Positions 7,972 to 63,909 of a stretch of 64,000 nucleotides of DNA are shown here, piece after piece. Within the stretch, counting starts at the first letter, position 1, and each line of letters begins with the position of its first letter. Origin of the DNA: a virus (Duplodnaviria; Heunggongvirae; Uroviricota; Caudoviricetes); the IMG/VR virus record IMGVR_UViG_3300027710_001241, positions 16,620-80,619 of that record. One strand, given 5' to 3'. A program made the translations under genes and the position numbers. Below the pieces are notes generated by a model. It saw nothing but the letters and a program-made list of their open reading frames with translations. It did not search any database and had not been told where the DNA came from.

Positions 7972-8020
7972 ATATTACCTTTGAAGTTTAAAATTTAATT
8001 ATAACAGGTTCTCATTTTTT

Positions 8021-8075
8021 GTGCTACCACTACACCAACACAGTTGACCAAACTGTGCCCAGGATTCGAACCTGG
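8021..8075 (-). ncRNA. tRNA-like fragment: T-arm plus 3' acceptor immediately followed by a complementary 5' acceptor/D-arm half (permuted order)
   Basis: minus reads CCAGGTTCGAATCCTGG GCACAGT TTGGTCA ACTGTGT TG GTGTAGTGGTAGCAC; no anticodon arm. Confidence 0.3.
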
Positions 8076-8136
8076 CCCGTCTTTTTTACAGAAAGATTTA
8101 ATAAGATTGCTGAAAAGAACCTAAATAGTCAATTGG

Positions 8137-8212
8137 TTGCGGGGGAAGGATTCGCACCTCCGATCTCCAGCTTATGAGACTGGCGGGGACGACTAGACTC
8201 CCCTACCCCGCG
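8137..8212 (-). tRNA. initiator-type tRNA-fMet(CAU)
   Basis: starts CGCGGGG, ends CCCCGCAA with C1:A72 mismatch as in bacterial tRNAfMet; anticodon loop CUCAUAA. Confidence 0.75.
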
Positions 8213-13244: not shown

Positions 13245-13321
13245 TGGTGCCCAGGGCGAGACTCGAACTCGCAAAATTTGGCTTCTAAGACCAACACGTA
13301 TACCAATTCCATCACCTGGGC
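13245..13321 (-). tRNA. tRNA with anticodon UAG (Leu, CUN codons) but short class-I variable loop
   Basis: acceptor GCCCAGG/CCUGGGC; anticodon arm UUGGU CUUAGAA GCCAA; T-arm GCGAGTTCGAGTCTCGC; consensus promoter just upstream. Confidence 0.55.
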
Positions 13322-13329
13322 ATAAAACT

Positions 13330-13358
13330 ATTATAGCAGAATATTTATATTCTGTCAA
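13330..13358 (-). promoter_or_regulatory. sigma70 consensus promoter driving the tRNA array
   Basis: rc reads GGTTGACA GAATATAAATATTCTGC TATAAT. Confidence 0.65.
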
Positions 13359-13593
13359 CCTACATTATTAAATTTGTTAAAGTAGTGCTACCATCGTTAT
13401 AAGCACCATTCACCTGTGTAATAAACTCGAGCAGGACTCGGTACGTTACTTGGGATAGATCCAGATGATACCCACTGTATGCCGATCCCATTCAAGCGAT
13501 CAGCCGGGCAACGAACCCGCATCCTTTTACTATATCGGTAGTTCGAACATACCTTTATAGCGTGACTTCTCTTGCTAACACTCTAACAAAACT

Positions 13594-13683
13594 TGGTCCC
13601 GCAGTGAGGAATCGAACCCCATCCTGGACCTTATCTAGATTAATCGGATATAAGCCGACCTGCTCTCCTTGAGCTACTGCGGG
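13594..13683 (-). tRNA. atypical 90-nt tRNA-like gene (anticodon loop CUUAUAU, i.e. UAU by my fold; long variable region)
   Basis: acceptor CCCGCAG/CUGCGGG A CCA, T-arm UGGGGTTCGATTCCUCA, anticodon stem GUCGG/CCGAU. Confidence 0.4.
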
Positions 13684-13691
13684 AAAAACTT

Positions 13692-13767
13692 TGGCGTCCC
13701 TAGGGGGATTCGAACCCCCGTACTCACCGTGAAAGGGTGATGTCCTAGGCCTCTAGACGATAGGGAC
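13692..13767 (-). tRNA. tRNA-Glu(UUC), copy 1
   Basis: acceptor GUCCCUA/UAGGGAC; anticodon arm UCACC CUUUCAC GGUGA; T-arm GGGGGTTCGAATCCCCC. Confidence 0.85.
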
Positions 13768-13775
13768 ATTTAAAA

Positions 13776-13943
13776 CCATTAATTGATAGCACTCACAGTC
13801 TATGACGACGAGCGAATTTCTGAGTGAGGTGCTTCCTCTCATAAGCCATTGCTGTGGTTGTGTTAGGACTGATCGATGGCCCGACCAGCCCGCCTAGTAT
13901 ATGCGTCCATATACGATACCCACTGAATGCTATCAATTAATGG
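13776..13943 (-). ncRNA. structured ~168-nt RNA candidate closed by a perfect 16-bp terminal helix
   Basis: CCATTAATTGATAGCA at 13776-13791 is the exact reverse complement of 13928-13943; internal hairpins GUAUAUG/CAUAUAC, CUGGUCG/CGAUCAG, GAGG/CCUC; no ORF. Confidence 0.4.
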
Positions 13944-14025
13944 TGCTCGGACCCGGAATCGAACCGGGATGCCTTTCGGCGAGAGATTTTAAGTCTCTTG
14001 TGTCTACCTATTTCACCATCCGAGC
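13941..14025 (-). tRNA. tRNA-Leu(UAA), class II
   Basis: acceptor GCUCGGA/UCCGAGC, anticodon arm AGAGA CUUAAAA UCUCU, long variable arm, T-arm CCGGTTCGATTCCGG. Confidence 0.85.
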
Positions 14026-14107
14026 AAATATCAAATTATTTTTTAAAGAACAATGTTAATTGCTTAACGTATGCTATTATTATAGCGCCTTTTTCTTTGC
14101 TTGTCAA

Positions 14108-14182
14108 GTGGTGCTCAAGGAAAGAATCGAACTTTCTACTCAGTCTTACCAAGACTGTGTTATGCCATTTAACTACAAGAGC
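14108..14182 (-). tRNA. tRNA-Thr(GGU) (two U-U mismatches in acceptor stem)
   Basis: anticodon arm CAGUC UUGGUAA GACUG; T-loop TTCGATT. Confidence 0.6.
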
Positions 14183-14183
14183 A

Positions 14184-14258
14184 TGGCCTCGCCTGCAGGA
14201 ATCGAACCCACATTCGCGAGGTAGAAGCTCGCTGTATTATCCATTATACTAAGGCGAG
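14184..14258 (-). tRNA. tRNA-Arg(UCU), copy 1
   Basis: acceptor CUCGCCU/AGGCGAG, anticodon arm GCGAG CUUCUAC CUCGC. Confidence 0.8.
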
Positions 14259-14263
14259 ATGTC

Positions 14264-14337
14264 TGGCACCCGGAGTAGGAATCGAACCTACAATAGCAGA
14301 GTCAAAGTCTGTTGTGTTACCACTACACTATCCGGGA
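14264..14337 (-). tRNA. tRNA-Gln(UUG)
   Basis: anticodon loop CUUUGAC; U1-U72 mismatch at the acceptor top. Confidence 0.65.
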
Positions 14338-14413
14338 TCAAATAAACAGGATGCTTTTTTACGGTTTTGATTAAAAGTCAAATGTATAAAGTTTGCTGAA
14401 CGCATCCTAAAAC
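14338..14413 (-). repeat. inter-tRNA structured spacer element, copy 1
   Basis: AACAGG-arm-...GTTTGCTG...-arm'-CCTAAAACTGG with outer stem AGGATGC/GCATCCT and inner hairpin TTTGA/TCAAA. Confidence 0.5.
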
Positions 14414-14489
14414 TGGTACCAACTTGAGGGATCGAACCTCATTCCACGGTGCTTCAAACCGTTGCTATGACCACATCAGCTAAGTTGGT
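14414..14489 (-). tRNA. tRNA-Phe(GAA)
   Basis: anticodon arm ACGGU UUGAAGC ACCGU; acceptor ACCAACU/AGUUGGU. Confidence 0.8.
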
Positions 14490-14496
14490 ATTGAAT

Positions 14497-14571
14497 TGGT
14501 AGATGTTAGTGGGATTGAACCACTGACCTTCACGGTGTCGACGTGGTGCTCTACCTCTGAGCTAAACATCT
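14497..14571 (-). tRNA. tRNA-Val(GAC)
   Basis: D-arm GCTCAGAGGTAGAGC; anticodon loop UCGACAC (C33 unusual); T-arm AGTGGTTCAATCCCACT. Confidence 0.65.
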
Positions 14572-14575
14572 ATAT

Positions 14576-14651
14576 TGGTCTCGCATGAAGGACTCGAACC
14601 TTCGAACTCCTCGCCCCAAACGAGGTGGCATAGCCGCTAACCGAATGCGAG
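14576..14651 (-). tRNA. tRNA-Pro(UGG), copy 2
   Basis: anticodon arm CCUCG UUUGGGG CGAGG; T-arm GAAGGTTCGAGTCCTTC. Confidence 0.8.
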
Positions 14652-14657
14652 ATAAAT

Positions 14658-14732
14658 TGGTGGTAAAGGAGGGACTCGAACTCTCACTGGGCACCGTATG
14701 AAGGTGTTGCACTACCATTATGCTACATTACC
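14658..14732 (-). tRNA. elongator tRNA with CAU anticodon (Met or lysidine-Ile2)
   Basis: D-arm GCATAATGGTAGTGC; anticodon loop UUCAUAC; single mismatches in acceptor and T stems. Confidence 0.65.
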
Positions 14733-14740
14733 ATATCAAA

Positions 14741-14823
14741 GTACACTTACCAGAATCGAACTGGTGACCAGAGCACCGCTCCAGCTATACTCCACATAAC
14801 GGCCTAGCCTCAGCCGCAGTGTA
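14741..14823 (-). tRNA. tRNA-Ser(GGA), class II, acceptor helix extended to 16 bp by flanks
   Basis: anticodon arm GUUAU GUGGAGU AUAGC; variable hairpin GGAGC-GGT-GCTCT; T-arm ACCAGTTCGATTCTGGT; 16-bp perfect inverted repeat 14731-14746/14819-14834. Confidence 0.65.
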
Positions 14824-14831
14824 CTTTGATA

Positions 14832-14905
14832 TGGTAGGGGTGCTCGGGAACGATCCGAGTTTTACTGGTTAAAAGCCAGTTACTTCACCTTAAAGTTTCA
14901 CCCCC
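14832..14905 (-). tRNA. tRNA-Lys(UUU)
   Basis: anticodon arm ACUGG CUUUUAA CCAGU; unusual T-loop ATCGTTC. Confidence 0.7.
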
Positions 14906-14909
14906 ATAT

Positions 14910-14985
14910 TGGTCCACCCGGTCGGATTCGAACCGACACCTCATTGATTAAGAGTCAAGTGCGCTACCGTTAACGCTACAAGTGG
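14910..14985 (-). tRNA. tRNA-Lys(CUU)
   Basis: anticodon loop CUCUUAA; T-arm GTCGGTTCGAATCCGAC. Confidence 0.7.
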
Positions 14986-15093
14986 TTAGTCGTAATTAAA
15001 TTGATTTAATGTGCCAACCAGGACCAATACGGGGTCTAGATTGACACTAACGTTTACTACGTTTCATGTCGTTCTCCTTTTGAACATTATTAA

Positions 15094-15166
15094 AATAAAA
15101 CAGGATACTGTTTGCTTTTCACAGCCAAAAGTGAAATATTTTGGTTTGCTGTAAGTATCCTAAAAC
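15094..15166 (-). repeat. inter-tRNA structured spacer element, copy 2
   Basis: same framework; outer stem AGGATACT/AGTATCCT, inner hairpin TTTCAC/GTGAAA. Confidence 0.5.
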
Positions 15167-15241
15167 TGGTGCCCCTGGATGGAATCGAACCACCATTACC
15201 AAGTTCGTAGCCTGGAGTATTATCCATTATACTACAGGGGC
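15167..15241 (-). tRNA. tRNA-Arg(ACG)
   Basis: acceptor GCCCCUG/CAGGGGC; anticodon loop CUACGAA. Confidence 0.8.
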
Positions 15242-15310
15242 AAAATAAAACAGGTTCCGCTTTTTTCATTATGCTTGAAATAATTAAGTTTGCTGAAAGG
15301 AACCTAAAAC
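15242..15310 (-). repeat. inter-tRNA structured spacer element, copy 3
   Basis: outer stem AGGTTCC/GGAACCT, inner hairpin TTTCA/TGAAA. Confidence 0.5.
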
Positions 15311-15385
15311 TGGTAGCCACGGACAATTTCGAAATGTCGACTTCTCGCTTATCAAGCGAGTACTCTGCCTCTGAGTTACGCGGCT
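15311..15385 (-). tRNA. tRNA-Ile(GAU)
   Basis: D-arm ACTCAGAGGCAGAGT; anticodon arm CUCGC UUGAUAA GCGAG. Confidence 0.8.
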
Positions 15386-15390
15386 AAATT

Positions 15391-15467
15391 TGGGGTAACC
15401 AATGGGGAACGATCCCATTCTAGCACTTTCACAGAGTGCGGTGCTAAACCTTTACACTATGGTCACC
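15391..15467 (-). tRNA. tRNA-His(GUG) with G-1:C73
   Basis: anticodon arm GCACU CUGUGAA AGUGC; extra 5' G pairing with discriminator C. Confidence 0.85.
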
Positions 15468-15472
15468 ATTGT

Positions 15473-15546
15473 TGGCATACCCCCAAGGACTCGAACCTTG
15501 ACAAACGGTTTTGGAGACCGTTATGCTGCCATTACATCAGGGATAC
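15473..15546 (-). tRNA. tRNA-Trp(CCA)
   Basis: anticodon arm ACGGU CUCCAAA ACCGU; T-arm CAAGGTTCGAGTCCTTG. Confidence 0.8.
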
Positions 15547-15550
15547 ATAT

Positions 15551-15641
15551 TGGCCGAGAGTCAGGGAGTCGAACCCTGTGACCAGTTTTAAGCTGGTCTA
15601 CTGATTAGCAATCAGCTGCATTACCATCCTGCCCACTCTCG
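15551..15641 (-). tRNA. tRNA-Ser(GCU), class II
   Basis: anticodon loop UUGCUAA; variable arm GACCAG-CTTAAAA-CTGGTC; T-arm CAGGGTTCGACTCCCTG. Confidence 0.75.
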
Positions 15642-15646
15642 ATATG

Positions 15647-15761
15647 TGGTACGACCGGCAGGGCTTGAACCTGCAAAAACGCATTGACTAGGTCCTGCGT
15701 CCCTTCCCCACTTTATGCTATGAGCATAACGGGAGGTCTTCCATATTCCACTCACGGTCGC
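15647..15761 (-). ncRNA. 115-nt tRNA-like RNA: canonical acceptor, T-arm and encoded ACCA but ~40 extra nt in the body
   Basis: 5' GCGACCG pairs with 3' CGGTCGT-A-CCA; T-arm GCAGGTTCAAGCCCTGC; no standard D/anticodon arms by eye. Confidence 0.4.
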
Positions 15762-15802
15762 ATATATAATTATACACGAATTAAGTAGAATGTCAATTAA
15801 CT

Positions 15803-15897
15803 TGGAGGAAAGAGGAGGAGTCGAACCCCACCCGGCTCTTCACCAGGACCCAGTTTTCAAGGCTGGTCGGGGAACCATCTCCCCTGCATCACTTTCC
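15803..15897 (-). tRNA. tRNA-Ser(UGA), class II, unusual D region
   Basis: anticodon loop CUUGAAA; variable arm CCTGG-TGAAGAG-CCGGG; T-loop TTCGACT. Confidence 0.6.
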
Positions 15898-15903
15898 ATA
15901 ACT

Positions 15904-15978
15904 TGGCGACTCGACGGGGAATCGAACCCCGATAATCGGATAGACAATCCGAAGTAATGACCTTTATACGATCGAGCC
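15904..15978 (-). tRNA. tRNA-Asp(GUC), copy 1
   Basis: anticodon arm UCGGA UUGUCUA UCCGA; T-arm CGGGGTTCGATTCCCCG. Confidence 0.8.
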
Positions 15979-15984
15979 TAAAAT

Positions 15985-16059
15985 TGGTGGAGGCCGAGGG
16001 AATCGAACCCTTCTAGACATCTTCCTTGCAAGGGAAGACCGTAGCCCACTACTGCCCCC
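15985..16059 (-). tRNA. tRNA-Ala(UGC), short D-loop
   Basis: anticodon arm CUUCC CUUGCAA GGAAG; acceptor GGGGGCA/GGCCUCC. Confidence 0.6.
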
Positions 16060-16073
16060 AATAAAATCTTTGC

Positions 16074-16147
16074 TGTACATCTAGGGATCGAACCTAGCTC
16101 ATTCTTCGTTAACAGCGAAGCGCCTACACCATGCTTGCTCATGTACA
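16074..16147 (-). tRNA. tRNA-Asn-like (GUU), copy 2, poor D-stem, acceptor extended to 13 bp by flanks
   Basis: anticodon arm CUUCG CUGUUAA CGAAG; T-arm CTAGGTTCGATCCCTAG; inverted repeat CTTTGCTGTACAT/ATGTACAGCAAAG at 16068-16080/16141-16153. Confidence 0.45.
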
Positions 16148-16369
16148 GCAAAGATCTCAATGATAAAAGGAATACACGGCGCCCTAAGACGAACTACTGT
16201 CCCCACGAGCTTCTGTCCTTCAACAGCATCACCGCCAACAACACTTTTCTTACCCCTACTGGACCGACTTACTCTCGCATCGTCACCCACCTCATATGTA
16301 GTGAAGCCCACGCAGTCGCACATGGGTCGGTTTCCGTCTACTCATCTTACTAAGTGTTGTCTTAGTATT

Positions 16370-16445
16370 TGGCGCCGCTGACGGGAATCGAACCCGCCTA
16401 AATCTGATAGACAATCAGGTGCCCTACCCAGAGGACTACAACGGC
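16370..16445 (-). tRNA. tRNA-Asp(GUC)-like, copy 2 (anticodon loop UUGUCUA)
   Basis: acceptor GCCGUUG/CAGCGGC; T-arm GCGGGTTCGATTCCCGT; paralog of the next gene. Confidence 0.55.
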
Positions 16446-16449
16446 ATGT

Positions 16450-16525
16450 TGGTATCGCGTACGGGAATCGAACCCGCCTACGTAAGTTGAAAGCCTACTG
16501 ACCTAACCCAGAAGTCCAACGCGAT
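16450..16525 (-). tRNA. tRNA-Glu(UUC), copy 2
   Basis: anticodon arm GUAGG CUUUCAA CUUAC; acceptor AUCGCGU/ACGCGAU. Confidence 0.7.
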
Positions 16526-16531
16526 ATAATT

Positions 16532-16621
16532 TGGTGGTCCTTGAAGGAATTGAACCTAACTGCCAGCCACCCTACAATATTATGGCAACGGATTTACAGT
16601 CCGCCGTAGGGAACAAAGACC
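16532..16621 (-). tRNA. tRNA-Tyr(GUA), class II, weak T-stem
   Basis: anticodon arm GCGGA CUGUAAA UCCGU; long variable region; T-loop TTCAATT. Confidence 0.5.
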
Positions 16622-16858
16622 AAATTTGTAACACACTCTCCGCTATGCGTTTTTGAAACCGTCAAAAGGTAAAAGAGAATGTGTGTATCAAAGAGCACAG
16701 TCTGCGACATTGCAGTCCACATCAGCTCTATGCTCTTTAATACGCTGTAATTTTTCCCTCTACAAGAAGAGTTTCATCCTACAGGCCGCCCGTTTGCCGG
16801 ATGTTTATACTGCCCAGCGAGGTCCTCGTTACCTCATTTCACAGTTTGCGGTCTACAA

Positions 16859-17014
16859 TCACTCGTGAGCAATCTCGCGCTTTCTAACGGCTTTGCTGTA
16901 CACCTTAGCACGTTCCATCTTTTCTAAGATCATCTTACGAAAATCCTGTGGAGATAGTGTGTACTTTTGTGTAAACTCAGCTTCTCGTTGTTTCTTATTA
17001 TCTGTTTCTGTCAT
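16859..17014 (-). CDS. hypothetical small protein (52 aa)
   Basis: unlisted minus ORF MTETDNKKQREAEF...; weak SD. Confidence 0.25.
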   Translation of the reverse strand: MTETDNKKQREAEFTQKYTLSPQDFRKMILEKMERAKVYSKAVRKREIAHE

Positions 17015-17025
17015 TTTTCCGATCT

Positions 17026-17060
17026 AAAAACAAAAAACCCCAGGAGTGTTAGTCCTAGGG
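17026..17060 (-). terminator. rho-independent terminator (minus strand)
   Basis: minus reads CCCUAGGA-CUAACAC-UCCUGGGG then UUUUUUGUUUUU. Confidence 0.6.
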
Positions 17061-17296
17061 TCCTTGGAGTTTAAGTGTAAACTTGTGTTTACATTAAGTC
17101 CTCCCGGACCCTGGTAATCTCTGGTGTGCGATCATATGACAAACTACCACACTCAATCGATAACCAATTGGAGGCTATTACACCTGCCTGTTTGGGCATC
17201 GTATTAAATTGTTGATGTCTGTTAAACGATTGCATTTTGTTTCTCTTTAAAAACCTTTTGTTTTACAAGGACAGCACCATTGCTGTCTATGTGTTA

Positions 17297-17325
17297 ATTA
17301 TACAGTTATTTAGTTCTCTTGTCAA
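17297..17325 (-). promoter_or_regulatory. sigma70 consensus promoter P1
   Basis: rc reads GGTTGACA AGAGAACTAAATAACTG TATAAT. Confidence 0.6.
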
Positions 17326-17384
17326 CCTCTTTTTGTTCTTTTGAGCAAAAAGTTTTTAACAACTTTCCTATCTAACTAGTCTCT

Positions 17385-17413
17385 ATTGTACATTTATTTA
17401 GTCTCTTTGTCAA
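17385..17413 (-). promoter_or_regulatory. sigma70 consensus promoter P2 (tandem with P1)
   Basis: rc reads GGTTGACA AAGAGACTAAATAAATG TACAAT. Confidence 0.55.
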
Positions 17414-17450
17414 CCACTATTTTTATATGTTGTATTTTTACAACAAAAGT

Positions 17451-17524
17451 GGTCCGGCCTACAGGAATCGAACCTGTATTGATAGCTTAGAAGGCTACTG
17501 TTCTATCCATTGAACTAAGGCCAG
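17451..17524 (-). tRNA. tRNA-Arg(UCU), copy 2
   Basis: paralog of the 3235 and 14184 tRNAs; anticodon loop CUUCUAA; D-arm GTTCAATGGATAGAAC. Confidence 0.75.
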
Positions 17525-17531
17525 TTGTCTT

Positions 17532-17560
17532 ATTATACTAGAAAATTATCAGTCTGTCAA
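17532..17560 (-). promoter_or_regulatory. sigma70 consensus promoter immediately upstream of tRNA-Arg
   Basis: rc reads GTTGACA GACTGATAATTTTCTAG TATAAT; predicted start coincides with tRNA 5' end. Confidence 0.6.
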
Positions 17561-31907: not shown

Positions 31908-33971
31908 TCACTTTGATGTAGCTCTGTAAGTACCATCCCAATCTGCAGGTAGATTTCTAGTTCTCATATCAGCAATGCGCTCAATCCACAATTCGTAGTA
32001 ATGATCCATCTTGCCGTCAAACTCGCCGGTAAGTTCCTGACATAGTGTAACGGCCTTGTCCCACTCTTGTTTGCGATAGTATTCTAACATTAGTTCATGA
32101 TGTTCTCTAGCTGAGAACCAATCTGCTGCCACAGTGACATCTGGATTGTAGAACACTGTAAAGATGTTAACACCAACATCCTTACCTTTAACTGCAATAC
32201 AATCTAACGGAATAGTAAAGTAGTTGTCACCTACACGGGCTTGTGTAAATTCACTGATAATGATCAATACGCCATAGTTCTTAGTCTGTCCTTCTAAGCG
32301 AGCTGTTAAACTAACCGAGTCACCTAGAACGTCATAACCAAAGCGGTCTTTACTACCAATGTTACCAATCAGTGTAGGACCAGTGTTGATACCAAGTCCG
32401 CAACCTACTAAGGGCTTGCCTTCTTTGGTAAGTTCAATGTTAAACAGTTCAACAGCGTGTAACATTTCTAGTCCAGTGCGAACAGCAGCTAACACATGAT
32501 CTGGATCTTGTTCTTCTTGAATAGGAGCACCGTGGACGTGCAATGACGCATCTCCGATGAACTTGATCAAACAACCATTGTTGCGTAAAATAGGTTCTGC
32601 AATAGCAGTCATGTAACGATTCATTATTGCTGTGAACGCTACAACGTCATCGCCGTAAGTTTCACCTAGACCTGTAAAGTTACGCATGTCACTCATAATA
32701 ACTGTAAGGTCTTTCTTCTCACCACCTAGTTTAATAAAGCTAGGATCTTTCTGTAAGCGTTCGACAATAACAGGATTAACATAGCTACCGAACTGTTTCT
32801 TAATCTGTGACTTTTGGAAAAACTCATCTAAGAATTTTACTGTGTAAGCATGAAGAGCAACGAGGATAATTCCAAGGGTGAAAACAGTAGTATCAAATAA
32901 CATATGAAACCCACTATAAGCGTACATACTAGCGAATACGCTACTAACAGCCAATACAACCATTGTCGCAATTCCGACATACATCCACCTTGTTAAAAAT
33001 AATAATAGTGCGCCTGCAATAACAAGAGCCAATATCTCAGCCTGATCAGCCCACTCAGGGCGCTGAATAGTTGTACCACTTAGCATTGTTCCCATAGCGG
33101 CAGCTTGTAGATCCTGCGGCCATATTTCTCCCTTGCTAGTAGCAATAGGCTGTACTAGACCTGCGGCACTAACGCCTACAATAACTATCTCGCCTTTAAA
33201 AGATTCTGGTAGTTCGACTAGACTATGTTGTTGCGGTGTTGCACTCCAATCGATCCAAACACGACTTATTCCGTCTGTAGGTATCTTACCAAACTTAGGA
33301 ATACGTAGAGCCTCTACGCCCATTTCTCCAATCTTAATTTGGAAGTTCTTATCCTTGGCAGCTACACGTAGAGTTTCTAATGCCAGACTGGGATACAAAT
33401 GCTCTTGACTGTAAATGACTAGAGGTGTTCGGCGAACAACACCATCAATCTCTGGAAAGGTATTAACAATACCTACACCTGCTGCTCGTTCTCCTAGCAT
33501 ATCTACGTTACTAATCAATCCAGGATATTCAACAACCATACCTTCGGGATCTAATCCAATGATAGCTGCAGGACTTCCGTGTGCTGTATTCTTAGAAGTC
33601 ATACTACCTAGACTAGGCAGGATTACTGGATATTGTTCTAAAGTACGTGCTAGTACAGGGTCTTGTTTAAACCTGTCTTTTTCAGGCATTAATATATTAA
33701 AAACGACTAATCCAGCTTCTCTTTTGTAGAGTTCTTTAATAATATCTGCATAAATGTCACGACTAAAAGGGTATTGGCCGTACTTGTCTAATGCCGCTTC
33801 ATCTATGTTAACTGTATGTACAGGGATATCTTTGGCAGGTTGGCCGGTAACCAATTGATCAAAATAACGTAGTCTCACAGACTCTACAAAACTTGGATCA
33901 GCGAATCGAACACCTACTATTAAGGCAAGTGTTACTATAGCCAGCCAGGGGCTTAATAATATTTTTTTCAT
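31908..33971 (-). CDS. CHASE2 sensor domain – class III adenylate/guanylate cyclase
   Basis: N-terminal signal/TM, periplasmic domain, TM cluster, C-terminal cyclase domain (KFIGDA...). Confidence 0.7.
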   Translation of the reverse strand: MKKILLSPWLAIVTLALIVGVRFADPSFVESVRLRYFDQLVTGQPAKDIPVHTVNIDEAALDKYGQYPFSRDIYADIIKELYKREAGLVVFNILMPEKDRFKQDPVLARTLEQYPVILPSLGSMTSKNTAHGSPAAIIGLDPEGMVVEYPGLISNVDMLGERAAGVGIVNTFPEIDGVVRRTPLVIYSQEHLYPSLALETLRVAAKDKNFQIKIGEMGVEALRIPKFGKIPTDGISRVWIDWSATPQQHSLVELPESFKGEIVIVGVSAAGLVQPIATSKGEIWPQDLQAAAMGTMLSGTTIQRPEWADQAEILALVIAGALLLFLTRWMYVGIATMVVLAVSSVFASMYAYSGFHMLFDTTVFTLGIILVALHAYTVKFLDEFFQKSQIKKQFGSYVNPVIVERLQKDPSFIKLGGEKKDLTVIMSDMRNFTGLGETYGDDVVAFTAIMNRYMTAIAEPILRNNGCLIKFIGDASLHVHGAPIQEEQDPDHVLAAVRTGLEMLHAVELFNIELTKEGKPLVGCGLGINTGPTLIGNIGSKDRFGYDVLGDSVSLTARLEGQTKNYGVLIIISEFTQARVGDNYFTIPLDCIAVKGKDVGVNIFTVFYNPDVTVAADWFSAREHHELMLEYYRKQEWDKAVTLCQELTGEFDGKMDHYYELWIERIADMRTRNLPADWDGTYRATSK

Positions 33972-57689: not shown

Positions 57690-58256
57690 TTAGATTAGTA
57701 CTTCACCAAACAACTTTTTTTGTTGGGCTTCTTTTTTCTTTTTGATTTCTTCTTGTTTGGCTAGTTTTTCTTGTTTGGCTTTTAATCTTTGTTGTTTTGC
57801 TCTAGCTTTTTCTTCGGTGTTTCTTCGAGCCTTACCCATTGGAGCAAAGTTGTAACCAAATTTAAGACCGTCACGGCATTGTATATTTTTTTCTACAACA
57901 TGCCGTAAATGTTCTTGCCCACATAATATCCTTTCACGACATAAGTCTACGTTATCGATCATTAAGTCAACGCCGTATGTAGTAGATAAGGCTTGTTCAA
58001 AGGTTGAACCATTCTCCATCTTACGAATGATAACCTCACCTAGGAATTGCCCATCACCACAACTTGGATCTAGAAAAGTTTTAGTTGGGTCCGTAAACTG
58101 CCCCAATGGTAACTTCTCTAAAATTTCCTGCACTAATGGAGTTGGGGTAAAGACCTCACCCGTCACCTTTACTCTTAATTGGTCCCGCTCTACTCCACCC
58201 ATATAGGTGCGATTACGAATGTGGTCAACTACTTCACTTAACGTTGGCTTCAACAT
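57690..58256 (-). CDS. N6-adenine DNA methyltransferase-like protein (motifs X and I only)
   Basis: VFTPTPLV and LDPSCGDGQFL; no NPPY; start uncertain. Confidence 0.4.
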   Translation of the reverse strand: MLKPTLSEVVDHIRNRTYMGGVERDQLRVKVTGEVFTPTPLVQEILEKLPLGQFTDPTKTFLDPSCGDGQFLGEVIIRKMENGSTFEQALSTTYGVDLMIDNVDLCRERILCGQEHLRHVVEKNIQCRDGLKFGYNFAPMGKARRNTEEKARAKQQRLKAKQEKLAKQEEIKKKKEAQQKKLFGEVLI

Positions 58257-61200
58257 AATCAATTTCTTCTTGGGTAAGACCAAAATGTTGGTAAAGTTCT
58301 TGGTCTGTCCAAATTTTACTAGCAAGTTTAGGCAATGATGATAGAACTTTTCCATTAAGGAATCCGCTCCACTTACCAGTATTAACAATAAATTTATAAA
58401 GTTTACTATCGAGATAACTTAAAATATTTTGTGCCTCTGCAGAGTCTGCTAGTATGTATTGACACACTTCTGAGGTGCCAAGATTACCTGCACTAAAAAA
58501 AGGTTTAAAATATCCACTAGTAGTCCAAACAATTTTAGACTTTAAAAAATCCTTTGATTGTTTTTTGCAAAACTTTGTCTGTGCATTTGTGTGGAATGTT
58601 ACATATTTGTAAGTTGTATCTTGAGTGTCAGAGAAATTATTGTGCTTGTGGTCACTGTGGCAAGATGTATCGCAAAGTATATCCAACTTAGGATGAGTTG
58701 AATTAATAACTTTGTCGTGCATAGGAAATGTCTTTGCAAAATTTCTTGGCAAATACTGAAGTTTAGTAATGTCTACTGTAAGACCGTCAATCACAGCAGT
58801 TTGCGTGTTTTTATTTTTTTGTACACACCAGGCTGTAAAACTGCTACCAACGGTAAAATATTTTCCTACTTCGGTGTCGACCCAAATAAGAGAATTATCT
58901 TTAAACATCTTCAGAAGTTGACTGTTCGGACTCATCCAACTGTCAGGAGTTACAAACGCAATAAACCCATTTGGATTTAACAACTCAATACCCTTTTCTG
59001 CAAATTTGCTCCACAGGTTATGGCTTTTTGGTTGTTTTGTTCCTTTATCGTTATTACCTTGATAAGGGGGGTTACCTACTATCACATCAAATTTCATATC
59101 AAATTCCATTTCTGTAAAGTCCCCTTGCATCACTACAATGCCAGGGTATTTCCGTTTAATCTGATTACAGAGAAAACTATACTTGTCATTATACACAATC
59201 TTGTCTATAATATCAATTCCAAACATATCTACTAGTACATCTACTTCTGACCCGTGGCCGCCAGCTACTACAAGAATATGTTTACAATGCTTACTCTTAA
59301 TAAATCTTTTTAGTTCTCGATTGCCAAAAATTTCAAACCAAAGTTTTGCGTCATCCTTAAGAATAGCCAGTGCGTTATTTTCAATATGTTTCTGTGTTGT
59401 GTTATATTTACTCATACGCACAATCATGTCTAACGTAGAAATTTCTAACCGATGTGCAAGACGTTTAATTGTATCTGGACCAACACCGTATAATTCTACG
59501 AATTCCTTGTACATTTCTGTATTGTTTTCAATGAGATCTACACATTCTAAAAAACTTTCACCTTGATAATTACTCAATGCTAGAACCGTCGTAGCACTTC
59601 CGTTAATCATACGTACAGCTTTTTCAACCACTGCCTTAAGAGGATCTTTTTTTACTTTGCCTGTAGCAGATTTTCCAGAATCAAATGTTTTACCGGTAGC
59701 AACAATTTTGTCAATTTTAGACTTTTCTGCTTTACTACCAGAAGAGCGTTTAGCCAATTCACCAAAAGCTTCGATTTCTTCAGAAGTAAGATCTTCAATA
59801 GTAATACGAGTATGAGCATTGGCAATTTCTAATAGCTTGTTGTTATCCTCGAACTCTTTAATAATTGTGTCGGCATCCATCCATTGACCAGAAATCATGT
59901 CCTTAATGTTAACACTGTTCATTACCTCACGAACAGCTTCAGGATAAGTCTTGCCCTTCTGGCGGATTAACAATGCCGCTTCTACTGCCACACTCATTAC
60001 AGAATTGCGAGTCTTACTTTGGTCAAAGGCAAAGTCAAAGATGTGACCGAATTTCTTACCGTATCCAGGAGTAAGGCAACGGCTATACTTTTGCATGTAA
60101 GGATAAACATCGCCTCCTTCTTGCATAAACAGGCATGCCTGGATCTCAGGAATACTATAACTGCGAGTACCCATCATATTAGTGATCACTAACAGTTTAT
60201 CACGACCTGGATAGTAACCGTTTTGCAATCGGACCAATTCTTCTTTGGTAAGGCCTTCTGCTTCTTTATTATCAGTATAATCTCCGTTGAGAATTAGCAC
60301 TTTGTGTTCTTCGCAATATTTCTCAATAATTTCTGCCAATGATTCCATTGACTTCTTAGAGATATTAACAAACAACATAAGATGATTGATAATCTCACCT
60401 GCGGCTTGGCTCAAGTTCATTCCGTAGATAGGTTGATATCCTAACAAGTCTTGGAATACTGCGGCAATAAACTTTTCCTGCGAACGAGCCTTTTCAAGGA
60501 TCTTATTAATGTTAGGCAATACATCATTGTCAAAGTCTTCCAATAGTTTGTTCATTTTAGGATTAAACAACATATTGTAGAATCGACGCACTACTACATT
60601 AGGAATACTAGGGTCCTGTTCTACCATGCAGTATGGAACACTAATAATCTCGTCAATGGCGTTCTTGCCGAATGCTTTAGCCAGGCGACCAATATTAGTG
60701 CCGCTGGCATTGATACGAGTAATTGTTTTACCGTTAAGGATATATTCAACTTTGTCAACTTGACTATCAGTATGGGTACCAAAGTCGGTTTCTTCTAGCA
60801 AGGCAATGTGTGTGCCTGCTAGTTGATTAATCCACTCATACTTTTCTTCTGCTTCTGGATTAAGGCTAATAAACACAACGGGCATTTTGCCGTCTGACAG
60901 GGCCTTTTTGTATTGCTCTTCTGAGTCAGCATCTGCGGCATCAATAAACTGCATACTTGCAAAATCAATGTACTTGCCAATCTCATCCTTATAGGAAGTC
61001 TTAACACTTAGGCCAACACCATAGGCCATAATAAACATAGACTCATGGCCAAATTCTTCTCGCATGGTTTTTGCAAGAGATAGGAACAAGATAGTCTTGC
61101 CAATACGAGCCGCTAGTTCGCAGACAAAGTTTGTTACAATGCCATTCTGGCGAAGGGCTGACAGAACTTTCTTGATTACAAGAATCTGAACATCACGCAG

Positions 61201-61656
61201 ATTAACAGCCTGCTTCTCATGATTAGGATTGAGCTTTGCCGCACACTTGCGAATTTTCTCATTGAGCCAAAGTCTAATAGGTTCAAAATCTTTAGTCTTA
61301 ATAAACTGTTCAATAAGCATTTTTTCGACTGCAATTTTAAACAGTTCCGAATACCTATTAGAGTCAGGCCGAGGCAATTGTGCGGCAACAGATTGCCTTA
61401 CAATTTTATGCAGAGCATGATCTCGATAACCCGGCTCGGGGATAGTATCTAGCAAATACTTTTGCCAAGAAACGTTTTTAGAACTAGATAGACTTAACTG
61501 GCGATCGGCGATTGTTCCTTCGGGAGCATCACCTAGACCAAATTGGAGGAACCCAGTTGATGCCATTGCGTCAATCCAAGTTTCTTCGGTCATGATGTAG
61601 ATACCGGTAGTATCTGTTTTAAGGCCAAGTTCTTCAGGGGACTTTACATAAGTCAT
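58234..61656 (-). CDS. giant helicase/ATPase – N6-adenine DNA methyltransferase fusion protein (DarB-like?)
   Basis: 1140 aa; Walker A AARIGKT; C-terminal VVAGGHGSE motif I and VIVGNPPYQG motif IV. Confidence 0.5.
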   Translation of the reverse strand: MTYVKSPEELGLKTDTTGIYIMTEETWIDAMASTGFLQFGLGDAPEGTIADRQLSLSSSKNVSWQKYLLDTIPEPGYRDHALHKIVRQSVAAQLPRPDSNRYSELFKIAVEKMLIEQFIKTKDFEPIRLWLNEKIRKCAAKLNPNHEKQAVNLRDVQILVIKKVLSALRQNGIVTNFVCELAARIGKTILFLSLAKTMREEFGHESMFIMAYGVGLSVKTSYKDEIGKYIDFASMQFIDAADADSEEQYKKALSDGKMPVVFISLNPEAEEKYEWINQLAGTHIALLEETDFGTHTDSQVDKVEYILNGKTITRINASGTNIGRLAKAFGKNAIDEIISVPYCMVEQDPSIPNVVVRRFYNMLFNPKMNKLLEDFDNDVLPNINKILEKARSQEKFIAAVFQDLLGYQPIYGMNLSQAAGEIINHLMLFVNISKKSMESLAEIIEKYCEEHKVLILNGDYTDNKEAEGLTKEELVRLQNGYYPGRDKLLVITNMMGTRSYSIPEIQACLFMQEGGDVYPYMQKYSRCLTPGYGKKFGHIFDFAFDQSKTRNSVMSVAVEAALLIRQKGKTYPEAVREVMNSVNIKDMISGQWMDADTIIKEFEDNNKLLEIANAHTRITIEDLTSEEIEAFGELAKRSSGSKAEKSKIDKIVATGKTFDSGKSATGKVKKDPLKAVVEKAVRMINGSATTVLALSNYQGESFLECVDLIENNTEMYKEFVELYGVGPDTIKRLAHRLEISTLDMIVRMSKYNTTQKHIENNALAILKDDAKLWFEIFGNRELKRFIKSKHCKHILVVAGGHGSEVDVLVDMFGIDIIDKIVYNDKYSFLCNQIKRKYPGIVVMQGDFTEMEFDMKFDVIVGNPPYQGNNDKGTKQPKSHNLWSKFAEKGIELLNPNGFIAFVTPDSWMSPNSQLLKMFKDNSLIWVDTEVGKYFTVGSSFTAWCVQKNKNTQTAVIDGLTVDITKLQYLPRNFAKTFPMHDKVINSTHPKLDILCDTSCHSDHKHNNFSDTQDTTYKYVTFHTNAQTKFCKKQSKDFLKSKIVWTTSGYFKPFFSAGNLGTSEVCQYILADSAEAQNILSYLDSKLYKFIVNTGKWSGFLNGKVLSSLPKLASKIWTDQELYQHFGLTQEEIDYVEANVK

Positions 61657-62456: not shown

Positions 62457-62693
62457 TCAATACATTTTTTTAGGTAGGCTTTGGTCTCTGAGTTTCTTTT
62501 GCCAACGACTTTTGGCTGCTCCTGCTCTACGCTTTCGGACAGTAGTTGGCTTTTCGTAGAACATTTTGGCTCTCAGTGTTTCCAAAATTCCAGAATCATC
62601 TACTTTTTGTTTAAATTTTCTCAGTGCTACGTTCAACGGCAGGTCGCCTACGATAACCTTATTACCCATTAGTGCTTTGTTGTTTTTGCTCAT
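62457..62693 (-). CDS. rpsU: ribosomal protein S21
   Basis: VALRKFKQ ... [12 protein letters not shown] matches bS21; listed ORF uses TTG, ATG at 62693 preferred (start could be further in). Confidence 0.7.
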
Positions 62694-63909
62694 TTTTCTT
62701 TTTATCAAAAATCATAATGGCTGGTTTGCCATCAACGGTATCTTTACTTATGCGAATTGACTTCAAACCGCGTTCGACGAGATCTACAGCATCAAACTGA
62801 TAGGGCATTAAGATCTTTTCGATAATGTTTTTAAGTCCGCGAGCATTGGTTTTGAGATCTTTGGCTCGTTTTGCAATTTCATGTAAGGCATCTTGATCAA
62901 AACTTAGATTAATGCCATCTAACTCAAACATATATTGATACTGCTTGATCGTGCTGTTTTTAGTATCTACGAGAATTTTTACAAGTTGATCTTCACTGAG
63001 TTCATCTACGTTAGTAATCAATCCAAAGCGACCCACGAATTCAGGAATAAGTCCAAACTTGATAAGATCCTTGGTTGTCACTTCTTGTAGCAAAGCTGGA
63101 TTATCTTCTACGTTGTCTACATTAGCATGGAAGCCTACACTTCTAGCACCTGTACGTTGTTTGATAAGTTTGTCAATGCCTACAAAGGCGCCGCCGCAGA
63201 TAAACAAGATACTACGAGTATCAATCTCCTGCATATCACTGCCCGGGTGTTTGCGTTTACTAGTAGACGGCACTCTCATAATGCTGCCTTCGATCATCTT
63301 TAGCAGGGCTTGTTGCACACCTTCTCCGCTGACATCTCGGGTGATACTAGCACTTTCGCCCTTACGGCTGATCTTGTCGATTTCATCAATGTAGACAATA
63401 CCTCGAGCTGCTTTTTCCATATCTCCGTCTGCTTCATTGATCAAACGAGTAAGAATACTTTCTACATCATCACCGACGTAGCCTGCCTCTGTAATACCAG
63501 TAGCATCACATATAGCAAAGGGTAGATCTAGGTATTCGGCAATCTTACGTGCCATCATTGTTTTGCCACAGCCAGTAGGACCTAACAATAATACATTGGT
63601 TTTTTCTAGCTCAATGTCTTTACTGGGATTATTAATGCGTTTAAAATGCTGGCTAACTGCCACACTTAGTGCAATCTTAGCATCATCTTGACCTATAACA
63701 TAATCGTCTAGGTACTCTTTTATTTTAACGGGGTTTAGTAGTTTAAGTGTATTAGGAAAAGTTTTTACTTTTTCATCTTTGAGTATATCAATACAAAGCT
63801 CTACACAATCATTACAAATGGCAGCGTGATCGCCGACAATTAACTTTTCCACATCCTCTTTGCTTTTGTTGCAAAAATCACACTTGTGGTCTGTTTCCGA
63901 TTTTGTCAT
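62662..63909 (-). CDS. clpX: ATP-dependent Clp protease ATP-binding subunit ClpX
   Basis: N-terminal C4 zinc finger (CDFCNKSK ... CNDCVE), Walker A GPTGCGKT, full AAA+ domain. Confidence 0.95.

Follow-up and report, generated by a model that had tools for sequence, protein, structure and literature searches.

The window analysed here, a 64,000-nucleotide (nt) stretch of the virus record IMGVR_UViG_3300027710_001241 (record positions 16,620 to 80,619), contains 33 transfer RNA (tRNA) genes, all on the minus strand, most of which lie in an array at 13245–17524 as determined by ARAGORN. Three spacers of this array are copies of one structured RNA element of 69–76 nt, encoded like the tRNAs on the minus strand. 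Related elements are found in the tRNA arrays of other phages, and the module that closes them also lies in front of a gene (51632–53029, minus strand) whose product is predicted to resemble Ro60. The source is a large uncultured phage, probably an aquatic one. The nearest protein matches of the open reading frames (ORFs) in the window are from Pelagibacter and Methylophilales myophages, and megablast of the tRNA array against cultured phages returned tRNA-sized matches only, indicating that there is no close cultured relative. At gathering thresholds, Rfam recognised nothing but tRNAs in the window.

The array is divided into units by perfect TTGACA-N16/17-TATAAT promoters on the minus strand. 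Five such sigma70-type promoters (12/12 matches) are present in window 13330–17560, ending at 13330, 14079, 15769, 17297 and 17532; they drive the tRNA units, which indicates that the phage uses host sigma70 for its tRNAs. The promoter at 15769–15796 (minus strand, TTGACA-N16-TATAAT) heads the unit with all three short copies of the element, and the next perfect promoter is located at 14079–14107. No sigma70 promoter was called within an element on the minus strand.

Each short copy is positioned exactly behind a tRNA. ARAGORN placed tRNA-Phe at 14414–14489, tRNA-Arg(acg) at 15167–15241 and tRNA-Ile(gat) at 15311–15385, and the copies start at 14413, 15166 and 15310, immediately behind an encoded CCA in every case. 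At their other end, copies 1 and 3 stop exactly 10 nt short of the next tRNA (Gln at 14337 and Arg at 15241, respectively). An earlier note, made from the letters of this DNA, had described three minus-strand elements in these spacers, each directly after a CCA end; its coordinates and quoted stems were correct, apart from one limit of copy 2, given as 15094–15166, for which the start holds but the other end reaches 15092, 2 nt further.

The copies share the frame GUUUU-AGG[stem]-NN-CAGCAAAC-variable hairpin-A-rich-[stem]CCU-GUUUUAUU. When they are aligned on the minus strand, GUUUU directly after the CCA is followed by a 5' arm of AGG and 4–5 variable nt, 2–3 nt, CAGCAAAC, 7–8 nt, a small hairpin, an A-rich stretch, a 3' arm ending in CCU, and GUUU(U)AUUU. 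Copy 1 (14338–14413, minus strand), between tRNA-Phe and tRNA-Gln, has its 5' arm at 14402–14408, CAGCAAAC at 14391–14398, its 3' arm at 14348–14354 and the tail GUUUAUUUGA; its inner hairpin (UUUGA/CUUUUAA/UCAAA) occupies 14366–14382. Copy 2 (15092–15166, minus strand) directly follows tRNA-Arg(acg) and is separated by 116 nt from tRNA-Lys(ctt), with the 5' arm at 15154–15161, CAGCAAAC at 15144–15151, the 3' arm at 15102–15109 and an inner hairpin of UUUCAC, an 8-nt loop and GUGAAA at 15117–15136. Copy 3 (15242–15310, minus strand), between tRNA-Ile(gat) and tRNA-Arg(acg), has the corresponding parts at 15299–15305, 15288–15295 and 15252–15258 and the inner hairpin UUUCA/AGCAUAA/UGAAA at 15264–15280. 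A model built from the short copies (R1) scored the three at 76.3, 73.5 and 66.3 bits, respectively. The exact 16-base frame GTTTTAGG-N7-CAGCAAAC matches the window three times, compared with a mean of only 0.71 matches in shuffles, where as many as 3 mismatches were tolerated. Within the window the frame is confined to the tRNA region and the stretch ahead of the Ro-like gene, with one further match that is probably due to chance.

The outer stems of copies 1, 2 and 3 are AGGAUGC/GCAUCCU, AGGAUACU/AGUAUCCU and AGGUUCC/GGAACCU, differing in sequence and complementary in each copy. Covariation was assessed in 43 distinct short copies from the window and IMG/VR. In the closing stem 90.4% of cells pair, compared with 75.2% in shuffles (a value as high was obtained in 0 of 500) and 38–49% in slid registers; stem pairs 11:69 and 12:68 each occur as four Watson-Crick pair types with zero unpaired cells. 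At pair 14:66 there are 15 U-G pairs, which would be C-A mismatches on the opposite strand, and the RNA strand is therefore the minus (tRNA) strand. Compensatory changes that keep the outer stem, as the earlier note proposed, are strongly supported by these independent copies. The structure of the short copies is under selection at the RNA level.

The inner hairpin, though weak, is genuine, and its geometry is non-random. Chance would give an exact 5-bp stem with a 7-nt loop in 1.2 of the 61 unique short copies, and 28 have one; U occupies position 2 and a purine position 6 in 23 loops, and many inner-hairpin loops fit CUNNNAA, like an anticodon loop. In copy 1, 15 nt (UUGACUUUUAAUCAA) are identical to the anticodon arm of E. 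coli tRNA-Lys(UUU). The folding energy is no better than that of shuffles (mean z −0.35), and independent copies support this hairpin more modestly than the closing stem. Many short forms have other interiors, either of the GCUAAAC...UUGUCUAGCGACAA type or A/U-only with no predicted hairpin.

A closing stem that runs into GUUUUAUUUU, with a U-rich tract after it in all three copies, could be taken for an intrinsic terminator or attenuator of the tRNA operon. This is hardly credible, since the copies lie in one unit, between promoters 15796 and 14107, and ten tRNAs downstream in that unit (tRNA-Arg, two tRNA-Lys, Met, Pro, Val, Phe, Gln, Arg and Thr) have no promoter of their own, which argues decisively against termination. 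The terminator scan did not call the copies, the enclosed 'loop' would be 40–50 nt, and the copy in the leader of the Ro60-like gene (type C, below) leads into a ribosome-binding site and a gene.

The three copies belong to a large family. A scan of IMG/VR with GTTTTAGG-N7-CAGCAAAC identified at least 119 loci, and nearly all of the matches listed have the whole frame, a complementary closing arm, ...CCUGUU and a location in a tRNA array. The frame is found in more than 100 uncultured-phage contigs; these IMG/VR relatives start 0–2 nt past the upstream tRNA, and their closing CCU lies 9–12 nt ahead of the next. A motif-and-pairing scanner detected 446 frames, 343 of them unique, in the collected phage loci and 0 in the reversed-sequence control; a frame had to have an AGG arm, CAGCAA 8–11 nt from the arm start and a closing arm that ends in CCT and is complementary at 7/7 positions. 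The G, U and U following CCU are 100, 92 and 92% conserved, though the scanner did not demand them, and the motif conserved across the family is (A/U)CAGCAA(A/U)C. Short forms (50–80 nt) coexist with long forms of 81–135 nt. Among 148 short forms, 101 begin 4–8 nt past a tRNA end and 91 end 5–14 nt ahead of the next tRNA. The elements are thus no random spacers, as the earlier note maintained; it had made this depend on the covariation persisting once more copies were aligned, and the frame is kept in 343 unique copies.

A 21-base frame pattern matched cellular genomes 18 times (L200–L217), mostly in metagenome bins and short contigs. The matches include Cyanobium, Oligoflexus, Chlorobiaceae, Pseudomonas sp. 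C1C7 and Marinomonas, and about half have the full frame. They are likely phage or prophage DNA, some of them probably phage DNA that was binned with cells; no host could be deduced from these 18 matches. Rfam has no entry for the element, and the literature, as far as it is searchable, has no description of it. The elements apparently constitute a large phage RNA family not previously described.

About one quarter of the copies are long forms of 81–135 nt. In their interior an anticodon-like arm and a variable stretch come first, then a T arm (GGUUCGAAUCC), a 3' acceptor strand to which NCCA is often added, a short loop, the complementary 5' acceptor strand, UA and lastly a D arm (GCUCAAUGGUAGAGC). 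With this order of parts, the long forms are circularly permuted cloverleaves inside the same frame. The T-loop motif is present in 75 of 94 mid-size forms, and the anticodon-like loops are canonical CUNNNAA loops with GUA, GAA, UCU, UAA or UGA. The window has one long copy (8006–8127, minus strand), 6 nt past tRNA-Met (8134–8212), which the earlier note had not seen. It reads UAUUU, AGGUUCUU, UUCAGCAAUC, an anticodon-like hairpin (loop CUGUAAA, with GUA), the T arm CCAGG-UUCGAAU-CCUGG, the acceptor hairpin CACAGUU/AACUGUG, a D arm, an A-rich stretch, AGAACCU and GUUAUAAU; in its minimum-energy fold, the outer stem closes a permuted cloverleaf. The long forms, 8006–8127 among them, have the tRNA-like domain; the three short copies lack it, and so does the Y RNA YrlB. 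ARAGORN and the Rfam tRNA model (RF00005, at least 29 bits, standard-order cloverleaf) made no call on the short or long window copies. In the E. coli phage fjerdesal (Felixounavirus), a long tRNA-like form (L219:5359–5484) lies in the tRNA array 1 kb downstream of the Ro-like gene; it gives only a partial 22-bit match to RF00005, is not recognised by Rfam and does not match the YrlA model. It is conceivable, if somewhat unlikely, that RNase P cleavage together with 3' trimming turns long forms into split tRNAs of two pieces, which would serve in translation or as repair templates.

The anticodon-arm shape of the inner hairpin raises the question of whether the elements act as decoys for tRNA-targeting host defences, absorbing anticodon nucleases or modification enzymes while the frame provides stability. 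The excess of 5-bp/7-nt hairpins with U2 and a purine at position 6, together with the canonical CUNNNAA loops of the long forms, fits such a role, as does the Ro-like gene adjoining an RNA ligase gene in a Yersinia phage. Against this, many short forms carry the other interiors described above, the frame and ACAGCAA are the most conserved parts and the loop less so, and no anticodon nuclease is known for the host of this phage. We consider a decoy function as such decidedly unlikely; it is compatible with a role as Ro60-like protein ligands and would overlap with that role if the protein belongs to a decoy particle.

A permissive search with the short-copy model gave a weak match (11.7 bits) immediately upstream of the Ro60-like gene. 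Inspection of the sequence there revealed a promoter (TTGACA-N17-TATAAT, 53532–53560, minus strand) and, between it and the gene, three tandem RNAs, all closed by the module of the short copies. The first, type A (53343–53506, minus strand, 164 nt), runs from AGGUUAG-GU-ACAGCAAU to CUAACCU-GUUAAAU, and in the consensus fold of 15 homologues 14 of 24 pairs show compensatory two-sided changes. Type B (53086–53332, minus strand, 247 nt) runs from AGGAUGG-AU-CCAGCAAUUU (a start also given as AGGAUGG-AU-CCAGCAAU) to CCAUCCU-GUUGUAU and is homologous to a 237-nt match in contig L030. Type C (53042–53078, minus strand; the 11.7-bit R1 match) is a mini-element of 37 nt in the 5' untranslated region of the gene; AGGUUAU-AU-ACAGCAAUUUAAUAAUAAAAC-GUAACCU is followed by G, AAGGA as the ribosome-binding site and the ATG at 53029. 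With the arm spelled AGGUUAU-AU-ACAGCAAUUUAAU...GUAACCU-G, the AAGGA and ATG come at once after it. Type C is a putative translational operator through which the gene may regulate itself. These three RNAs at 53042–53506, the link to the Ro60-like gene, the tRNA-like long forms and the spread across phages had all escaped the earlier note.

The association of module and gene is widespread. Among 80 IMG/VR loci with homologues of the protein (55–95% identity), 71 have the module on the strand of the gene, mostly directly upstream. In 42 of 58 unique homologous leaders, CAGCAA lies at −75 to −15 in a covarying stem, and G and the ribosome-binding site come directly behind the 3' arm of this stem; the stems are of unrelated sequence (e.g. 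AGGUUAU/GUAACCU, AGAAUGU/ACAUUCU, UGAAUGC/GCAUUCA and AGUUUAG/CUAAACU). Conversely, the protein is encoded within flanks of ~10 kb at 32 of the 119 element loci among the matches listed, as in contig 3300032331_001946 (L063), where the gene is 1.8 and 3.6 kb from two elements. Such elements accompany the gene in cultured phages as well. In Vibrio phage phi-pp2, a stem with ACAGCAA upstream of the gene encloses the ribosome-binding site and takes in the AUG, and in Sinorhizobium phage phiM7 it abuts the ribosome-binding site. The stem and ACAGCAA are likewise found, at a greater distance upstream of the gene, in Campylobacter phage F356 (two copies), Listeria phage LMSP-25 (two copies, AGAGAGC-UA-ACAGCAA and AGGAAGC-AC-ACAGCAA, both ending CCU/CUCU-GU) and Bacillus phage Thrax1, and the stem sequences are all unrelated.

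These distributions bear on two explanations that leave Ro60 aside. The elements could be cis-acting punctuation of the tRNA precursor, which would direct host RNases such as RNase E, RNase P and 3' exonucleases or prevent misfolding of neighbouring tRNAs with no free RNA made. Fixed distances to the flanking tRNAs (0–2 nt and ~10 nt) and a weak inner hairpin would be expected of such signals, and both flanks, GUUUUA and GUUUUAUU, consist of AU-rich, single-stranded sequence of the type that RNase E prefers. This explanation is nevertheless unlikely in our judgement: of the ~30 tRNA junctions in the window, no more than 3 or 4 have the element, the same module closes the 164-nt and 247-nt RNAs and the 37-nt leader away from tRNAs, it precedes the Ro-like gene in Firmicutes and Campylobacterota phages, and a spacer has no need of the complete tRNA-like fold of the long forms.

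Even less probable is that the elements are selfish or decaying DNA of no function, left over from tRNA genes that were permuted or duplicated, or else derived from a miniature mobile element inserting at GTTTT(A). GTTTT is present on both flanks in the manner of a target-site duplication, near-identical copies sit between different tRNA pairs in different contigs (e.g. L009, L090 and L091), and the short forms resemble reduced long forms. But the compensatory stem changes and the G-U pairs on one strand only point to RNA-level selection, and the copies upstream of the Ro gene have other 5' flanks and keep the 3' GUU, which rules out a target duplication as the source of the flanks. The elements are accompanied by no transposase or integrase, and the module is conserved across very distant phages.

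The 465-residue product of the gene at 51632–53029 belongs to Pfam DUF2828 and DUF7788 and to phrog_850 ('RNA-binding protein'). D270, S272 and S274 are invariant in its family and form DxSxS, the metal-site pattern of vWA domains. An AlphaFold2 model was obtained at pLDDT 72.8. Foldseek ranked three Ro60-type structures at the top of the Protein Data Bank (PDB) matches: a TROVE domain (9kop, E 3.5e-7), the Ro60 dimer of Thermus phage phiLo (9l5y, E 1e-5) and human Ro60 (9nen, E 3e-3). The alignments cover ~500 columns at TM 0.47–0.49, and Ku and other vWA domains rank next. By these best matches, the protein is predicted to be Ro60-like, with a TROVE-type ring and a vWA domain. The link to Ro60 comes from the predicted fold only, sequence searches being negative; NCBIfam gave nothing useful on the protein, and literature on DUF2828, PF11443 and DdR-21 partners yielded nothing usable. 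A Ro60 gene beside the tRNA array was considered and rejected: the ORFs adjoining the array encode 2OG-Fe(II) oxygenases and a methyltransferase, and the Ro-like gene is 36 kb off.

The DUF2828 protein is encoded in at least 709 cultured-phage records, including Felixounavirus, KVP40-like, Aeh1, A511/P100-like, staphylococcal, enterococcal, campylobacter, Bacillus and mycobacterial phages; DUF2828 proteins are also present in eukaryotes, as the Aeh1 record indicates by remarking on a likeness to an Arabidopsis protein. In Yersinia phage fHe-Yen9-04 the gene adjoins the RNA ligase gene, near a ribosome hibernation factor gene; in Listeria phage LMSP-25 it adjoins a 'ribosome associated inhibitor A' gene; and in fjerdesal it lies directly upstream of the tRNA array. 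The gene neighbours in cultured phages suggest an RNA-repair or translation module. Other RNAs are also encoded near the gene in relatives: a phage-encoded two-piece (alpha-type, permuted) transfer-messenger RNA (tmRNA) 1.4 kb upstream and YrlA-like domains (39.9 and 42 bits) directly upstream, at L164:1291–1617, L164:2739–2809 and L060:947–1011. On a 353-kb phage contig, a Polynucleobacter-1 RNA (RF01718, 96.7 bits, above threshold; L132:4885–5030) lies ~500 nt downstream of the gene and is possibly a further partner RNA or a clue to the host.

The three spacers are, in the reading that we hold to be reasonably probable, short Y-RNA-like ligands of the DUF2828-type Ro60-like phage protein, released by tRNA processing. 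This reading draws on the parallel with Ro60 and Y RNA: several RNAs lie beside the gene, paired ends flank a motif, and forms with and without a tRNA-like domain coexist. The sequence shows the elements inside a multi-tRNA operon with one promoter and none between the copies, with which they would be transcribed. They would then be excised by the tRNA processing enzymes, 3' maturation of the upstream tRNA leaving the GUUUU 5' end and RNase P cleavage at the downstream tRNA the GUUUUAUUNN 3' end; we infer this from the fixed distances of 0–2 nt and ~10 nt. The closing stem and the single-stranded ACAGCAA would be bound by the Ro60-like protein, as suggested by the gene linkage and by the module on the protein's own ribosome-binding site, where the leader copy (type C) could serve as an autoregulatory operator. 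More speculatively, the variable interior might be an effector or mimic domain, shaped as an anticodon arm in short forms or a permuted cloverleaf in long forms, that tethers the protein to tRNA-handling enzymes and nucleases or titrates them, as in bacterial YrlA and the bacterial Ro60-Y RNA-PNPase complex.

Several observations weigh against Y-RNA-like ligands. The Ro60 assignment depends on a medium-confidence model (pLDDT 72.8, TM 0.47–0.49), and a sequence-profile search of the DUF2828 protein against the PDB returned no Ro60. The Ro-binding motif of bacterial and phiLo Y RNAs (GNCGAAN0-1G, or CGAA) is not conserved in the phage family. The short copies have no tRNA-like domain, their inner hairpin is thermodynamically weak, and they lie 36 kb from the gene in the window. 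Co-occurrence of module and gene is in part due to the shared ancestry of related phages, and another factor, e.g. a host RNase, could be the reader of the module, whose tie to the gene would then be one of co-regulation only. Protein binding, the release of free RNAs and the role of the interior are inferred.

Further structured features lie in the same array. At 14729–14836 (minus strand), a perfect 19-bp inverted repeat, which includes the final bases of tRNA-Lys(ttt) and the initial bases of tRNA-Met, surrounds a 70-nt core with a T-arm-like CCAGUUCGAUUCUGG. With a folding energy of −50.9 kcal/mol (z −6.2) and no call by ARAGORN or Rfam, it is another structured tRNA-like RNA between tRNAs, one that lacks the ACAGCAA frame. 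At 13768–13944 (minus strand), the space between tRNA-Leu(taa) and tRNA-Glu has 128 nt enclosed by an inverted repeat of 21 nt with 95% complementarity; this interior (folding z −2.4) contains CACAGCAAUGG but outside the family frame. Just past short copy 2 in the tRNA operon, a ribosome-binding site (AAGGAGAA) precedes a 6-codon mini-ORF (15047–15079, minus strand; ATG AAA CGT AGT AAA CGT TAG, encoding MKRSKR). Two class-II-like tRNA genes were not called by ARAGORN: one at 15807–15897 (minus strand), with a UGA (Ser-like) anticodon loop, reaches 37.5 bits under the tRNA-Sec model, and the other at 16532–16622 (minus strand) has a GUA (Tyr) loop and an odd D arm.

Elsewhere in the window there are genes for Hsp70, a ClpX-like ATPase, sugar-modifying enzymes and many 2OG-Fe(II) oxygenases. 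Cargo unusual in a phage comprises a CHASE2-nucleotide cyclase sensor (31908–33971), a full-length Hsp70 (44707–46620, 852 bits), a 1140-aa Eco57I-like methylase (58234–61656) and the ClpX-like ATPase (62662–63909).

The analysis shows that phage tRNA arrays contain other RNA genes in annotated "spacers", and a class of circularly permuted tRNA-like RNAs is added. The searchable RNA module tied to the DUF2828 gene provides candidate ligands and a putative autoregulatory operator that are testable in E. coli and Listeria phages. Phage Ro60-type particles thereby become approachable, whether their role is in tRNA quality control, in hijacking host PNPase or in defence against tRNA-cleaving immunity.

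Among known systems, the bacterial and phage Y RNAs (YrlA, RF02553; YrlB; phiLo Yrl1 and Yrl2) are comparable in having an end-pairing stem with a conserved single-stranded motif on the 5' side, in lying beside a Ro60-type gene with several per genome, and in occurring as longer tRNA-like and shorter forms. The phage elements have the end stem expected of a Y RNA, in that a covarying closing stem of 7–10 bp surrounds a large interior. Y RNAs are sought at no more than 4 kb from a Ro60 (TROVE) gene (Chen et al., 2014), and types A, B and C lie 13–480 nt upstream of the Ro60-like gene, within that distance. YrlA shares with the long phage forms the permuted order of a T arm, a closed acceptor hairpin and a D arm (PMC4201824). 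It is also their best non-tRNA Rfam match, at 42.0, 40.7, 39.9, 36.8 and 36.3 bits (E 1e-4 to 7e-6); no long form reaches its gathering score of 69 bits, and the YrlA model does not match the three short copies. Two phage systems are already described in which such RNAs accompany the protein: Ro60 of Thermus phage phiLo binds two Y-like RNAs encoded upstream of its gene as well as host PNPase (PMC12135203), and Listeria phage CKA15 has three abundant noncoding RNAs upstream of an Rsr-like gene (CKA15_055), proposed as Y RNAs (PMC12282133). The family described here differs in several ways. The motif is (A/U)CAGCAA in place of the CGAA motif; the protein is of the DUF2828 branch, which is not recognised as TROVE by sequence search; the long forms retain an anticodon-like arm; and many copies lie in tRNA operons right after CCA, with a mini-copy on the gene's ribosome-binding site.

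The long forms also resemble the permuted tRNA genes of Cyanidioschyzon merolae and the two-piece permuted tmRNA, in which the 3' tRNA part (anticodon arm, T arm and 3' acceptor strand, often with NCCA) precedes the 5' part (5' acceptor strand and D arm). In contrast to permuted tRNA genes, the phage break lies between the D and anticodon stems and is bridged by the closing stem and ACAGCAA, no bulge-helix-bulge splice motif is apparent in the long forms, and the three short copies are entirely without the permuted tRNA part. The tRNA cluster of phage T4 likewise encodes non-tRNA stable RNAs (species 1 and 2, rnaC and rnaD), which are co-transcribed with and processed from the cluster; the likeness to these RNAs within a phage tRNA cluster is one of description. 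Permissive Rfam scans for ribozymes with self-cleavage at the 5' end (HDV-like, hatchet) and riboswitches gave no family at E ≤ 10, and a CRISPR repeat was rejected because the GTTTTAG start belongs to no repeat-spacer array.

A striking resemblance is to the Class I RNAs of Dictyostelium (RF01414). The model scores copies 1, 2 and 3 at 22.5, 29.4 and 30.6 bits, the leader copy at 21.6 bits and two relatives at 33.1 and 26.1 bits; no match reaches the gathering score of 41.5 bits. Class I RNAs are ~60 nt long with a GC content of ~35%, a short covarying stem joining the ends and an A-rich 3' half, like the phage copies, and beside the 5' arm they carry an 11-nt motif, CCUUACAGCAA, of which the near-invariant U3, C6, C9, A10 and A11 are all present in the phage copies (PMC7919456). 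The corresponding stretches read GCGUUCAGCAA, CUUACAGCAA and CCUUUCAGCAA in copies 1, 2 and 3, respectively. The 5' G of Class I RNAs pairs with the C of a terminal CUGU, and all three copies have AG-G[stem]...[stem]C-CUGU(U). Class I RNAs differ in being products of nuclear genes with their own DUSE promoter ~60 nt upstream, whereas the phage elements lie in a sigma70-promoted tRNA operon; they are reported only from Dictyostelia, where their known partner is the RRM protein Rnp1A. The phage RNAs are not members of Class I, as scores, promoter and taxon differ, and the resemblance may be due to convergence or chance. A bolder alternative, somewhat unlikely in our estimate, is that the closing stem, ACAGCAA and ...C-UGU are an ancient cross-kingdom recognition element for DUF2828/TROVE-type proteins; the Class I RNAs would then be homologues or functional equivalents of the phage Y-like RNAs. 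A testable link is thereby raised between RNAs of phage tRNA arrays and the Class I RNAs of social amoebae.

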